Of a stretch of DNA of 64,000 nucleotides, positions 36,001-39,000 are shown in pieces (the first letter of the stretch is position 1; each line of letters opens with the position of its first letter). Made by a program: the position numbers. Where the stretch lies: the NCBI RefSeq assembly GCF_055900595.2, contig NZ_CM148325.1, one strand, 5' to 3'.

Positions 36001-39000
36001 ATGTGAGAAATATTTTACCCGCTATTTTACCCATTGGCGCGGCTTAAGAGCTTATTTTTGAATTCACAATGGTCACGATATAACCATCTTGCTCGCCCGT
36101 GGATAACTTTGGCTTTTGGTAGGTCGCCGGACTTAATCCGGTCATAGATGAAGGTTTTACCGAAGCCAGTATCGGCCATGATGAATTTCAAATCAACCAG
36201 TGAATCAGGTTGTAGTTCGTGTTGCATGAGTGCTATCTCCGAATAGGGAATCGAACCTGCAAATCAGGCAATAAAAAACCGCATTGATGCGGCAATGGTA
36301 GGTCTGGATATCTTGAGAAATGAACGGGCCTCATCGAGTGTGAGGCTGTGGTTAGTCCTTGCGTAACTCGCTAATTCTTCTGTAAGTCTCTGGTGCTTTG
36401 TTTCCGTGTATCTTCATTTCAGACTTCAACAGAGCAACGAGAGAATCCCATTCGTTGAGGATGCCTTTGAATGCCGGAACGCGCTTTGCAACCTTGTCGA
36501 ATGAATCCCTGATTTCTGGAATCTGCTCGACAAGCGCAACGCATCGTCGGAAATCGGCTGCGTCATGTGGAGCACCGAAGCTATGACCATAGATATTCTT
36601 TTTCAGTCCACATGCGATTGAGGCAAGAGTTGCGCTACTGATGCCAACATCGCCAGTCGATTGCCATTTCAAAACCTTCATAGCCAAATCTGACATTTCT
36701 TGTCTCCAATAAAAAAACCGCCATCAGGCGGCTTGGTGTTCTTTCAGTTCTTCAATTCGAATATTGGTTATGTCTGCATGTGCTATCTGCGCCCATATTA
36801 TCCAGTGGTCATAGCAGTCGTTGATGTTCTCTGCTTCGATAACCCTGTTGAATGGCTCTCCATTCCATTCTCCTGTGACTCGGAAGTGCATTTATCATCT
36901 CCATAAAACAAAACTCGCCGTAGCGAGTTCAGATAAAAGAAATCCCCGCGAGGGCGGGGATGTTAAGTCGGTGGGGGTACAGTATGGATATCGAAAATTA
37001 TTGCGCGATTCTCATTACTCCCCTGGGAAAACATTATCTGGCAAGCATACGTTGTTGATGCTGTTTCACAACACGTAAACGTAAGCTGTCATAGGCCCAA
37101 TTGTAGAACATGGTATATGGTAGAAAGAAAAGGAAGAATCCTATCTCTAGTGTAAAAGCCTGTAACAGACTGACGCTCAGAATCCAGGACACCATAATGA
37201 CGCCGATCGCGATAAATCCACTTTCAAAGCCCAAAGCATGGAATGCACGAACTTTTGCAGTTCGTTTTACCTGATGAGCAGGCCAGTAGCGATCAAATAG
37301 CATGTTATAGATGATATTCCAGATCATTGCAGTTGAAGCCAACAAGATAGTCATCCCGCCCATTTCGAGTATAGTTCGCTGCATTAACCATGCTGTGGTG
37401 GGGGCCAGAATCGCAGTGGCAATTCCTTCAAAGCAAATAGCGTGAAAAATACGCTCAAGTAACGATCTGTGTTGAATCGCATTATGTTGCATAACTTACC
37501 TTTCTTACAGTTTCGACCGCGTTATGGAGTTGTGAGATTTTTATCGATTTATGTGATATATAAAAGATAGATACCATCGAAAAAATTGATAGATTATGCG
37601 TTACTCACTTGAAGCGTTAAGTACATTTGTTGAAGCGGTTTCCTGTGGCTCCTTTTCTGCTGCGGCACGAAGATTACGCAAAAGTCAGTCCGCAGTCAGT
37701 ACGTCAATTGCCAATCTTGAGGTCGATCTTGGTATATCATTATTCGATCGCTCTTCGCGAGAACCTGTGCTGACAGAGGAAGGAAAGAAAGTATTGAGTT
37801 ACGTTCATGCGATTTTGTCAGCCAGTGAACGTCTTGAGGAGGTGGCGGTTTCGCTTGCCGGAGAGACTGAAGCTCGTCTGACGTTTGTGCTTTCCGATAC
37901 CCTACACCCTGACTTATTAGAAGACATCATGGTGCAGTTTGATAGTCAGTTTCCACATACTGAGTTAGAGGTTTTAATTGGTGAGGATGTCGATGTCATC
38001 GATCTTTTGCAAAAAGAACGAGCGCAGATCGGCTTAATTGAGTCTCGGGAACACTACCCCACCGATATTGGCTCAACCCGTTTACCGATGCAAGCGTGGA
38101 TGGGCATTTATGTTTCGGCGTCACATCCACTGTCTGCAGAAAAAACAATCCAGCGGGAACAACTTCATTCATGGCGAGAACTTCGTCTTAATACTTATAT
38201 CGATAACCGGGAGATGATTGCCCGTGGACCGGTTTGGTCTGCACCTAACTATTTGTTGTTACTCAGTATGGCCGTACAGGGATTTGGCTGGTGCTCTCTG
38301 CCCTGTGCTCTGGTTGAGGAGTTTGCAACAGAAAAACCGCTGGTTCAGCTCGACGTACCTGGCTGGCCAAAGGCAATTTCTATCGATCTGCTTTGGAATA
38401 AAAAATCGCCACCAGGCGCGGCTGGAAATTGGCTTAAGCATCATTTACAGCATATCAATGCCCCAAATAGTCGAACTTAGATTAGTTAAAATATGGAATC
38501 CTGAAATAATCTATGTTGATATGTGGAGCCATCTTCCAGGCTCCCACCTAAATCATGTTAGCAGTTCCATTTTTTTGATGATTTCCGCATGAGCATCATC
38601 GTTATCCCCAGCGACAAATTGAATACAAAACCAGTGCTACCGCCATTGCAATTCCTACCGTTGCGAATGCTTCAGGCCAGCTCATTGATTCACCTCCTGC
38701 GGCGGTTCTGGTAGTGGTATCCAGAACAAGGCGTTCCCTAACCACGATAAAGTGCCGTCGCTCAACTCCACGTATTCCCCTTGCACCTGTCCTGCCATAT
38801 ACTCACCGTGCTTTGAATAAATTAAAATCCAATCATCTTGAGCGGGCATTCGCTCACTACAGCTTATCCAACCACCCGGAGTTACCGGAGAGTTGCCGCG
38901 TTCTTTAATGTGCAAGCGAGGCTCACCATCTTTTGGTTCAGGCCACTGGCGCTCCATGTTGATCTTCAATTTATCTTCCTGTAGTGGCACACTGAATTTG

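Follow-up and report, generated by a model that had tools for sequence, protein, structure and literature searches.

Small membrane peptides of bacteria and their phages

Several bacterial single-pass micropeptides (AcrZ, MgtS, MgtR, KdpF, PmrR and CydX) regulate larger membrane proteins. The small open reading frame (ORF) described here, which has 27 codons, belongs to a family that shares with these micropeptides a size within 20-50 amino acids, one predicted transmembrane (TM) helix with short polar ends and a conserved helix face of small residues, and like them it is usually missed by gene callers. The 27-aa family has no sequence relationship to the AcrZ/MgtS/KdpF group and, unlike that group, is borne by phages, moves as a cassette and follows unrelated upstream genes to which it would be translationally coupled. 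The type I toxins Hok/Gef, TisB, DinQ, ShoB, Ibs and Ldr are also small hydrophobic helical peptides. The cassette differs from these in having no antisense RNA, no leader of its own and no homology to them, and in being coupled to an upstream gene rather than tightly repressed. Some small membrane proteins of phages target the host envelope early in infection or in lysogens, examples being HK97 gp15, a superinfection-exclusion moron, and T4 Imm. The 27-aa peptide would share with them the features of phage-encoded small inner-membrane proteins that are dispensable and scattered among related phages. It is not known to resemble them in sequence, is shorter, lies in early operons and has no promoter of its own.

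In Stx phages, the exo-xis and nin regions have been implicated in the balance between lysis and lysogeny. The family shares with the exo-xis (ea) region its neighbourhood and early transcription unit, and the upstream gene is DUF551/Ea22-like (PMC10834534). The peptide is not among the named exo-xis ORFs, however, and is also found in the nin region behind unrelated genes. A Ribo-seq scan for small ORFs in EHEC took only ORFs of at least 30 aa (PMC5597208). Fesenko et al. described, in "The Cryptic Bacterial Microproteome", 67,297 clusters of intergenic ORFs of 15-70 codons under purifying selection in Enterobacteriaceae, most of them hydrophobic and potentially transmembrane, and the 27-codon ORF is of that kind (PMC11188072). 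Peptide strings of the family were not found in the supplementary text of Fesenko et al. or in the supplements of the EHEC Sakai small-gene paper, and eight peptide strings were not found in the searchable full-text literature.

The 27-codon ORF and its start context

The window is the whole stretch of 64,000 nucleotides of contig NZ_CM148325.1 that was analysed. The following features were identified in it.

38602..38685, minus strand: small ORF of the MxWP(E/D)AF phage micropeptide family (translation, conservation, distant relatives, single helix)
38690..38698, minus strand: Shine-Dalgarno (SD) sequence AGGAGGTGA inside the 3' end of the upstream frame (sequence; SD-like GGAG(G) across upstream contexts)
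38682..38685, minus strand: ATGA stop/start overlap (sequence; constant first base of codon 2)
38682..38978, minus strand: truncated C-terminal remnant of a dATP/dGTP-pyrophosphohydrolase/DUF551 phage early gene (Pfam; pseudogene in locus L001)
38597..38604, minus strand: TAACGATG, comprising the ORF stop codon and the start of the next gene; deletion scar (window compared with L002, 2784-2990)
38556..38596, minus strand: out-of-frame 3' remnant of the deleted 77-aa gene (window compared with L002)
38989..40270, plus strand, ends approximate: IS3-family insertion sequence (annotation "IS3 family transposase" under the match)

The small ORF runs from an ATG at 38685-38683 through 27 sense codons to a TAA at 38604-38602, and its translation is MSWPEAFATVGIAMAVALVLYSICRWG. 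The first-pass annotation had placed a 27-codon ORF here and left its strand unstated; the ORF is present and lies on the minus strand. The start context that had been described for it was also found. The SD sequence lies inside the upstream coding region at 38698-38690, with a spacing of 7 nt from GGAGG to the ATG, and the ATG overlaps the upstream stop codon as ATGA (38685-38682), the initial A belonging to the ATG and the final A to the upstream TGA. The same 4-nt ATGA overlap is formed with the annotated upstream CDSs of L208, L209 and L210, and two distant relatives, L217 and L220, have a 4-nt start/stop overlap as well. In all 45 unique copies codon 2 begins with A, the codon being AGC, ACC, AAT or ACT, so that a TGA able to terminate the upstream gene is carried inside the cassette itself.

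Distribution and mosaic edges of the cassette

Of 5426 complete E. coli genomes, 1737 contain the 84-nt block, which was matched at 3464 places, with up to 8 of them per genome. Many of these matches cover exactly positions 16-99 of the query, that is, from the ATG to the stop codon. The block was also detected in 94 phage records, over its full length and with 55-89% amino-acid identity, and copies are present in 933W, VT2-Sakai, VT1-Sakai, BP-4795 and P1-like phage-plasmids. By homology, the ORF is a copy of a putative micro-gene carried by E. coli and Shigella temperate phages, namely Stx/lambdoid phages and P1-like phage-plasmids, and more distant relatives are present in other phages. In GTDB, searched with one genome per species, only three loci were found, one of them in an Escherichia sp. 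and the other two on short contigs that carry the labels Segatella and Acinetobacter and look like contamination; for this reason the near-identical cassette is considered essentially restricted to Escherichia/Shigella. The K-12 prophages Qin, CPS-53, Rac and DLP12 contained no family member when searched by regular expression, by tblastn and with a family HMM on six-frame translations, so the small-protein catalogues of K-12 are of no help here.

Homology between copies opens at the ATG or GTG and closes at the TAA or TGA. The block follows at least 8 unrelated upstream sequences, of which nearly all provide an SD-like GGAG(G) 5-10 nt before the start, and it precedes at least 14 unrelated downstream ones. 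As judged by these comparisons, the cassette moves as one unit bounded by its own start and stop codons. Its position is, in the contexts compared, always directly behind a co-directional early-operon gene of the ea/exo-xis or nin region, with the SD sequence inside that gene and, across the family, the ATGA usually overlapping its stop codon. No constant neighbouring gene that would hint at a partner or function was found beside the cassette.

Lack of conservation of the ORF, or its disruption, in close homologues with an intact upstream gene had been named beforehand as the outcome adverse to a gene. The ORF is mostly missing from such loci (about 60 of 80 close DUF551 homologues) and not disrupted in them, since the slot behind homologues of the DUF551 C-terminus is taken by one of several alternative coupled genes. 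The 41-aa hydrophobic phage protein phrog_5525 sits in this slot, directly after that DUF551 C-terminus and with an identical stop/start overlap, and a related ORF lies nearby in L002. It is a separate sequence family that is represented in PHROGs (E = 8e-30), whereas the 27-aa family is not.

Coding signature

Conservation of the ORF and its start context at homologous loci had been proposed as a check, and the outcome clearly favours a gene. In a sample of 71 distinct contexts, anchored on interior sequence only and hence blind to the ends of the copies, 68 retained the intact 27 codons, two had a later stop and one had a premature stop. Among the 45 unique copies with a start codon, the codon is ATG in all but one, which has GTG. 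A variable-gap pattern that allowed 45-57 nt collected true copies that were all of equal length between the anchors. Longer variants stay in frame (two additional codons in P0015; hexanucleotide expansions in P0025, P0026, P0027 and P0031). Broken copies carry a TAG at codon 3 (POCJ13, L078 and L260), a 1-nt deletion (L107) or an internal deletion (L086).

Substitutions at codon positions 1, 2 and 3 numbered 47, 41 and 113, respectively, and 75 of 93 amino-acid replacements remained within small or hydrophobic residues. Synonymous changes made up 64 of 139, against 45 +/- 5 expected, and none of 1000 simulations reached this number. The ratio dN/dS, obtained from minimum-spanning-tree counts, was only moderately low (0.34-0.49). 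Judging from these patterns, the cassette evolves in the manner of a coding sequence. The antisense frame that shares the wobble position shows a like synonymous excess (57 of 121, against 40 +/- 5 expected). The frame assignment therefore rests on the conservation of start codon, stop codon and SD sequence, together with the edges of the block.

Predicted product and distant relatives

The product had been described as a single hydrophobic helix, and structure prediction agrees: AlphaFold2 on the family alignment gave one helix spanning residues 3-26 with a mean pLDDT of 90. The mean Kyte-Doolittle hydropathy of residues 6-24 is 2.2 for the window peptide and 1.4-2.9 across 26 variants. Most family members have an acidic residue at position 5 and a basic residue at position 25.

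Protein homology was searched with the upstream-extended ORF of 47 aa as the query. The database proteins of the family are only N- or C-extended or fused versions, and two exact 27-mers that were tried were not found in a collection of 15 billion proteins. A profile search of 1.84 billion proteins gave 73 matches, many of which open with MxWP(E/D)AF..VG and have diverged tails; the signature common to the distant relatives is M-x-W-P-(E/D)-A-F...G. Three distant relatives were examined and lie in packed phage-like gene arrays, two with a 4-nt start/stop overlap and the third with a 14-nt overlap with the gene upstream of it. The distant relative P0040 reciprocally matches the copies of E. coli phages, and tblastn of another, P0064, against cultured phages gave no match.

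No significant family match to the peptide was found in Pfam, NCBIfam, PADLOC or PHROGs. The best NCBIfam match was KdpF (TIGR02115), with 14.7 bits against a cut-off of 26.85 and over 12 residues only. PHROG families 4612 and 35838 were matched with E = 0.003-0.17 by the 27-mers and their extended versions, and these are composition-level matches between transmembrane segments.

Alternative explanations

The family is probably, on comparative sequence evidence, a real translated small membrane-protein gene of which the window copy is a relic. An ORF without function, arisen by chance and conserved by hitch-hiking with the end of the DUF551 gene, is extremely unlikely. Short ORFs preceded by an SD sequence do arise by chance in the window, where 10 of 614 ATG ORFs of 20-50 codons have an SD core (a 5-mer at -15 to -4), and the ORF is unannotated in every record inspected. 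The window sequence alone cannot place the ORF beyond chance, but the comparative evidence does. The block is independent of DUF551, being found behind at least 8 upstream sequences in two phage regions and missing from most close DUF551 homologues, and its start, length and stop are kept at 40-60% protein divergence. Hitch-hiking thus appears largely refuted already, and of the two possibilities that the first-pass annotation had left side by side, the real small peptide gene is preferred, with ORF, ATG, SD-like motif and ATGA kept across many contexts. The 84-nt block might instead be a non-coding recombination linker or a cis-acting RNA in which the ORF is incidental. It does lie at mosaic junctions with variable sequence on either side, as a linker would, and the unrelated metagenomic phage L220 has exactly the same first 21 nt as E. 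coli copies. This explanation is nevertheless very unlikely, since substitutions follow a three-base periodicity with conservative amino-acid changes, the edges of the block are start and stop codons with a stop that varies (TAA, TGA or displaced), and an AT-rich relative retains the protein motif through different codons. An RNA element was rejected because no Rfam family matches and no consensus fold is conserved (only -3.9 kcal/mol, without covariation); a search of Rfam with 38300-39100 at E up to 10 gave nothing but two noise matches. A selected gene on the plus strand of the window, with the minus-strand ORF as its shadow, would fit the opposite-strand CDS annotated across the block in phage POCJ13 (gp73) and the wobble-sharing frame, which is open in 42 of the 45 unique sequences with a similar synonymous excess. 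The synonymous-excess test could not separate the strands, and the antisense gene was rejected on ORF availability. In the wobble-sharing frame, an ORF with a start codon spans 80% or more of the block in just 18 of the 71 contexts, and in 38 of 71 its coverage is below 30%. In the window this frame has no start codon before 38714, and the 41-aa plus-strand ORF at 38589-38714 uses another frame, in which no synonymous excess was seen. Such a gene is scarcely credible, and equally so is ribosomal frameshifting near the end of the upstream gene, by which the frame would become a C-terminal membrane anchor. In the window the frame of the small ORF is open for 20 codons before the ATG (a 47-aa GTG ORF), a strong SD sequence precedes the junction, and in-frame fusions to Ea22-like or other upstream proteins exist (P0017, P0033 and P0037). 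These fusions, however, are rare, each forming a single cluster, and indels or sequencing errors could account for them. Programmed frameshifting was set aside because no slippery heptamer was seen in the last 60 nt and the upstream genes and frames vary by context, while an ATG or GTG is always kept.

A further alternative concerns function only. TisB, DinQ, ShoB and Ibs resemble the peptide in size and hydrophobicity, and hok/sok or RelE/ParD modules frequently follow the cassette at a short distance, the hokW/sokW and hokD loci being a few hundred nt downstream of it in some phages. The peptide could accordingly be a small hydrophobic type I toxin that kills the host or halts its growth through damage to the inner membrane. 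This is considered unlikely. Neither of the hallmarks sought, an antisense RNA and a structured mRNA of its own, was found; the family shows no conserved leader or fold and no independent 5' UTR, and the conserved block opens at the ATG. Rfam detected no antitoxin RNA in the searched region of the window, and no toxin family was matched in Pfam, NCBIfam or PADLOC at or near the cut-offs. The genes to which the cassette is coupled are ordinary early genes, and a single genome tolerates as many as 8 copies of it.

Proposed mode of action

Translation of the small membrane-protein gene would proceed by termination-reinitiation, in coupling with the gene before it, while the early phage genes are transcribed. 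The resulting peptide would be inserted in the inner membrane as a single transmembrane helix whose short acidic N-terminus (MxWPEAF) faces outwards and whose basic C-terminus (CRWG) faces inwards, an orientation predicted from the positive-inside rule only. The invariant residues W3, P4, A6 and G11 and the small residues at 13, 15 and 17 may form an interfacial cap and a slim helix face that would pack against another transmembrane helix. Given such a cap and face, and by analogy with other bacterial and phage micropeptides, the peptide most likely binds and modulates a larger membrane protein or associates with itself. There is about an even chance that it acts by binding a membrane partner.

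Decayed surroundings of the window copy

The gene upstream of the ORF had been called DUF551-like. The DUF551 match holds (Pfam PF04448, with 38.6 bits over residues 45-103 of the 107 aa, the gathering cut-off being 22), but an intact gene is not present, as only a C-terminal fragment remains. The remnant also matches the C-terminal part of dATP-dGTP_PPHyd (profile positions 68-96; 31 bits against a cut-off of 23). A mechanically called upstream ORF reaches a GTG at 39005 only through IS-end sequence. In L001, a locus with 99.8% identity, PGAP annotates the upstream gene as a pseudogene with "missing N-terminus", and it is likewise annotated as a pseudogene in near-identical E. coli genomes; the intact version in L003 encodes 228 aa.

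The IS3-family element, which is no part of the small gene, with the reading frames orfA (39052-39354) and orfB (39381-40220) on the plus strand, adjoins the truncated 5' end of the upstream gene and lies between the relic and any phage promoter. Homology of the window to L001 stops at 38988. L001 is truncated at the identical point but has an intS fragment there and no IS, so the IS need not be the cause of the truncation. On the downstream side, comparison with L002 showed that a deletion between two copies of the 8-mer TAACGATG took most of a 77-aa gene, which is annotated as a CDS in L002 (WP_000517421). A promoter scan of the window predicted no minus-strand promoter upstream of the ORF. 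With the upstream gene truncated, the downstream gene deleted and no promoter predicted, the window copy is probably silent. It is probably an intact but unexpressed relic in a decayed prophage island, a well-preserved fossil among the insertion sequences with which this island is riddled.

Significance of the family

The family is almost never annotated. It has likely been overlooked because it is shorter than the minimum of about 30 codons that common gene callers and at least one Ribo-seq screen apply, and because no member was found in the four lambdoid K-12 prophages checked. A broader reading is that the MxWP(E/D)AF peptides are widespread early micropeptides of phages, so far undescribed as a family, that act on one specific inner-membrane target of the host and are carried as a portable stop-start cassette able to insert after any early gene. 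This reading is tentative and rather doubtful. If it were true, the peptide might block entry of competing phage DNA, or might tune a membrane protease or transporter that affects lysis-lysogeny or host physiology, and it would be carried by the principal Shiga-toxin phages and by a third of E. coli genomes. If the cassette is translated, it would be among the commonest accessory genes of the temperate phages of E. coli, so far unnoticed. It would offer a clean, testable example of micropeptide expression from two regions that are poorly understood, exo-xis and nin, and it would show how an ATGA stop-start cassette can change operons while retaining translational coupling.

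The open reading frame in the window

The small open reading frame (ORF) lies on the minus strand, a point left out by the first-pass annotation. That annotation correctly described, as sequence and translation confirm, an ORF of 27 amino acids with an ATGA overlap and a Shine-Dalgarno (SD) sequence inside the upstream coding region.

38685-38602, minus strand: 27-codon ORF (ATG 38685-38683, 27 sense codons, TAA 38604-38602); product MSWPEAFATVGIAMAVALVLYSICRWG
38698-38690, minus strand: SD sequence AGGAGGTGA, inside the upstream frame, 7 nt 5' of the ATG
38685-38682, minus strand: ATGA stop/start overlap, in which the upstream TGA shares bases with the ATG of the small ORF

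The upstream frame ends in ...CAG GAG GTG AAT CAA TGA. Its earlier designation as a DUF551-like gene holds for the domain match (Pfam DUF551, 38.6 bits) but not for the gene, which is a fragment lacking the N-terminus and retaining the last third of a dATP/dGTP pyrophosphohydrolase domain. A scan of the window for chance expectation found 614 ATG ORFs of 20-50 codons, 10 of which have an SD core at the right distance. Taken alone, the window sequence thus makes the small ORF not more than chance, and its case depends on comparison. Another SD-preceded hydrophobic ORF of 33 codons (window 50398 downward, minus strand; MFSASFPSVPVILLIMLSEIPLPLSCIVCAPEK; GRAVY 1.35) emerged from the same scan.

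Distribution and annotation

Full-length tblastn matches to the peptide, with 55-89% identity, are present in 94 phage records, including 933W, VT2-Sakai, VT1-Sakai, Min27, BP-4795, ArgO145 and POCJ13. A blastn search with 105 nt around the ORF matched 3464 places in 1737 of 5426 complete E. coli genomes, with up to 8 copies per genome and 164 places on plasmids. In many of these matches the aligned segment is exactly query positions 16-99, which correspond to the ORF from the first base of its ATG through the end of its stop codon. Outside Escherichia and Shigella, near-identical copies are almost absent; GTDB, searched with one genome per species, gave three loci only, two of which are likely contaminants. 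No family member occurs in the four lambdoid prophages of K-12 that were checked, which may explain why small-protein surveys of K-12 never met the family.

The small ORF is annotated in none of the records inspected. Exact 27-mers were absent from the protein collection on exact look-up, and the versions found there are all longer, owing to a fusion, loss of the stop or an in-frame start further upstream. Common gene callers use a minimum gene length near 90 nt, which is the likely reason for the non-annotation.

The cassette as a separate module

Copies of the 27-codon block were fetched by a DNA pattern that left the first 8 nt, the interior and the stop codon unconstrained. These copies are joined to at least eight unrelated upstream sequences and at least 14 unrelated downstream sequences. 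Similarity begins at the start codon (ATG; GTG in one unique sequence) and finishes at the stop codon (TAA, TGA, or shifted by a few codons), and a GGAG-type motif lies 5-10 nt 5' of the start in nearly all upstream contexts. The first base of codon 2 is A in all copies (AGC, ACC, AAT or ACT); the ATGA is therefore kept, and the cassette supplies a TGA to any preceding gene. Annotated upstream CDSs terminate at this TGA in three E. coli chromosomes.

In lambdoid prophages the cassette occupies two sites, one on the ea/exo-xis side, between upstream DUF551/Ea22-like genes and downstream xis-int or hokW, and the other on the nin side, between the upstream replication genes and downstream hokD, RelE/ParD or DUF968-RusA. 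Often no further gene separates it from an unannotated gap, beyond which lies a toxin-antitoxin module (hokW/sokW, hokD or an opposite-strand RelE/ParD), as in 933W (L004 1501-1950), the E. coli chromosomal loci L208 (2501-3202) and L209, and locus L005. This proximity may reflect only a shared insertion hot spot for accessory genes.

The junction was also viewed from the upstream side in 80 viral contigs gathered via the DUF551 C-terminus. In about 60 of them likeness to the window ends within a few bases of the SD/ATG, and at least six alternative unrelated genes follow this AGGAGGTGA...ATGA/TGATG/CGTG junction, each with a start that overlaps or abuts the gene before it. Among them are genes for an 86-aa soluble protein, for a membrane protein of 94 aa and for a hydrophobic protein of 41 aa, as well as the 27-aa ORF. 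The 3' end of the DUF551-type gene (about 1700-1715 in contigs L008-L087; window 38682-38700) is thus a common docking point. The 41-aa protein (MMNKCNALLYAMVIGFGLAAGIRVYITWESLINLAWSAIRG; phrog_5525, E = 8e-30) represents a second small hydrophobic family, located just past the DUF551 gene in L035, L037, L046 and L085; P1-like plasmids carry a related 40-aa ORF (L002 3082-3204), placed a few hundred nt 3' of the 27-aa ORF. Rare in-frame fusions (P0017, P0033, P0037 and P0018) add the peptide as a C-terminal membrane anchor to an Ea22-like protein, a nucleoside-deoxyribosyltransferase-like protein or the product of the 86-aa alternative gene. These could be real indel fusions or assembly errors.

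Coding signature

The 85 copies comprise 45 unique 84-mers, and about ten different nucleotide sequences share a single translation, MTWPEAFTTVGIAMAVALVVYSICRWG. Counted along a minimum spanning tree that joins the unique sequences, 47, 41 and 113 differences fall at codon positions 1, 2 and 3, respectively. Most amino-acid replacements (75 of 93) stay within small or hydrophobic residues, mostly A/V, S/T, I/V, M/V and L/V. In the pattern-unconstrained interior 64 of 139 changes are synonymous, against 45 +/- 5 with changes at random sites, and none of 1000 simulations reached 64. The dN/dS-type ratios are 0.34-0.49.

A synonymous excess of equal strength (57 of 121 against 40 +/- 5) appears in the antisense frame that shares the wobble position, and 42 of the 45 sequences have this frame open, as expected from the structure of the genetic code. 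An antisense gene was considered and rejected: an ORF with a start codon covers at least 80% of the block in just 18 of 71 contexts. The first-pass annotation had proposed checking conservation of the ORF and its start context in homologous loci, and the sense start, SD and stop are indeed present in nearly all contexts; together with the rarity of the antisense ORF, this fixes the sense strand. In POCJ13 (NC_025434.1), gp73, annotated as a 42-aa hypothetical protein opposite the small ORF (L007 1506-1634, minus strand of the locus), is probably an erroneous gene call, brought about by the amber codon of the sense ORF. An RNA element was likewise rejected: the consensus fold of the block is negligible (-3.9 kcal/mol, no covariation) and an Rfam search found no family.

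To assess integrity, copies were sampled by a 29-nt interior string, so that their ends played no part in the selection. All 27 codons are intact in 68 of 71 distinct contexts, with a later stop in two and a premature stop in one. With gaps of 45-57 nt allowed in the search, every true copy recovered has the same spacing, and the length variants in the protein database are in frame (two additional codons, or expansions of AM/AV dipeptide repeats). The dipeptide expansions in P0025, P0026, P0027, P0031 and P0015 (AMAMAM..., AVAVAV..., and added LV) lengthen the transmembrane helix by 2-8 residues, presumably by hexanucleotide slippage.

The first-pass annotation had left the choice between a real small membrane peptide and a chance ORF. 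For the family as a whole, spread, edges, intact copies and coding pattern support the former, a putative small membrane peptide; a chance ORF is rejected on this comparative evidence.

Broken copies

A TAG at codon 3 occurs in three lineages with otherwise different variants, namely POCJ13 (L007 1501-1584), L078/L159 and L260. L107 has a 1-nt deletion, L086 has an internal deletion, and L163 and L180 have R in place of W3. Dcm methylates CCTGG, and CCTAG results when the 5-methylcytosine of the opposite strand is deaminated, as at the classic lacI amber hot spots. Because the intact codons 2-3 are ACC TGG in two of the three cases, the repeated appearance of the amber codon probably reflects a hot spot of mutation and not selection against the peptide; the TGG-to-TAG change in the L078 variant (AGCTGG) is not accounted for by a Dcm site. 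Loss is tolerated, as expected of an accessory phage gene.

Wider family

A profile built from 16 variants and searched against 1.84 billion representative proteins (E up to 1e-3) gave 73 matches. Besides extended or fused E. coli versions, these include metagenome proteins of 27-52 aa with a common head and diverged tails. The common pattern is (M)-x-W-P-(E/D)-A-(F/I)-x2-(V/I/L)-G-x-(A/V/S)-x-(A/S/G)-x-A, followed by an aromatic residue near 21 and a basic residue near 25; W3, P4, A6 and G11 are invariant in an alignment of 24 sequences. Called proteins that are longer at the N-terminus usually carry a methionine two residues ahead of the W, which is probably the real start.

Three loci of distant relatives are tightly packed, co-directional, phage-typical arrays, one with DNA ligase, DHHA1 and an intein-containing Thy1 and another with a kinase/phosphatase pair. 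The overlap between the small gene and the gene before it measures 4 nt in two loci and 14 nt in the third. The AT-rich relative P0040 encodes the motif with different codons, and its reciprocal search matched seven Klebsiella phages as well as the E. coli phage copies. An unrelated metagenomic phage (L220 2328-2348) and the commonest E. coli variant agree in all of the first 21 nt (ATGACCTGGCCTGAAGCATTC), although synonymous alternatives exist for five of these seven codons. This identity could have arisen by chance codon choice, from a constraint on the initiation region or through exchange.

Surroundings of the window copy

The features next to the window copy are as follows.

38556-38604, minus strand: site where a 77-aa gene (WP_000517421 in P1-like plasmids; compare L002 2784-3032) has been nearly all deleted, with loss between two TAACGATG 8-mers
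38989 onward: IS3-family element (orfA 39052-39354, orfB 39381-40220), adjoining the relic
37596-38480, plus strand: LysR-family regulator
37034-37492, minus strand: PACE-family biocide efflux transporter

In E. coli genomes 99-100% identical here, the upstream gene is a PGAP pseudogene without its N-terminus, joined to an intS (integrase) fragment beside a tRNA-Arg gene. Homology to these genomes ends at 38988, where the insertion sequence starts. The IS3-family element need not have caused the truncation, because locus L001 has the identical truncation point without it. In intact relatives the 77-aa gene begins 4 nt past the small-ORF stop; an out-of-frame 3' stub is left in the window. P0063 carries a different deletion, joining the small ORF to the C-terminus of the 77-aa gene. 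A promoter scan predicted no minus-strand promoter upstream of the small ORF in the window. The window copy is therefore an intact 84-nt ORF in a wrecked prophage remnant. This copy is a local relic that probably yields no peptide at all, given the truncated upstream gene, the IS3-family element directly upstream and the lack of a predicted promoter.

An IS30-type transposase gene with an aberrant C-terminus (40118-41083, minus strand) appears to be interrupted by the IS3-family element; 38989-41083 is an insertion-sequence patchwork, with further IS-related genes beyond. Two small hypothetical genes also neighbour the relic (block 36352-36891 and 37034-38480). This neighbour block sits, in related genomes, between the prophage remnant and torI, in a KpLE1/CPS-53-like island at a tRNA-Arg gene. 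No tRNA gene is found anywhere in the 64-kb window.

Proposed working and comparison with known systems

The mobile 27-codon cassette always lies directly behind another early-operon gene, with its SD inside that gene and an overlapping stop/start. Its translation would be coupled to that gene by termination-reinitiation and take place while the early genes are transcribed, after infection or induction. PMC10834534 describes the early exo-xis region as poorly characterised and among the first transcribed. AlphaFold2 predicts one helix (residues 3-26, pLDDT 90), and the hydrophobic core has about 19 residues. Following the positive-inside rule, the peptide would insert in the inner membrane with its acidic N-terminal cap outside and its R/K-containing C-terminus inside. 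It may function by helix-helix packing, binding a larger membrane protein or itself, because the spacings of the conserved G11 with A/S/G15 and of A13 with A17 give small-xxx-small faces. No neighbouring gene is constant across the contexts compared.

The small gene would work like the many single-pass micropeptides of bacteria and phages. The peptide belongs to none of the curated families tested; its match to KdpF is far under the cut-off of that family, and PHROG matches are at noise level. A toxin-like role is possible but not favoured: features of type I toxins were not found, the cassette has neither an antisense RNA nor a leader of its own, the peptide has no homology to toxin families, and up to eight copies are tolerated per genome.

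A class of unannotated hydrophobic small ORFs under purifying selection in Enterobacteriaceae is described in PMC11188072; the 27-aa ORF falls within the class as described there, and the family was not found in the searched text of that paper. The EHEC Ribo-seq study of small genes (PMC5597208) could not have reported the peptide, because only ORFs of at least 30 aa were taken. The existence of the 27-aa ORF is confirmed, and comparison of sequences supports its being a member of a family of real, if so far predicted, small membrane peptides. Such a family is unsurprising in principle; it is of note because it is so prevalent in E. coli and Stx phages, has a stop-start design that is portable and can be tested cleanly.
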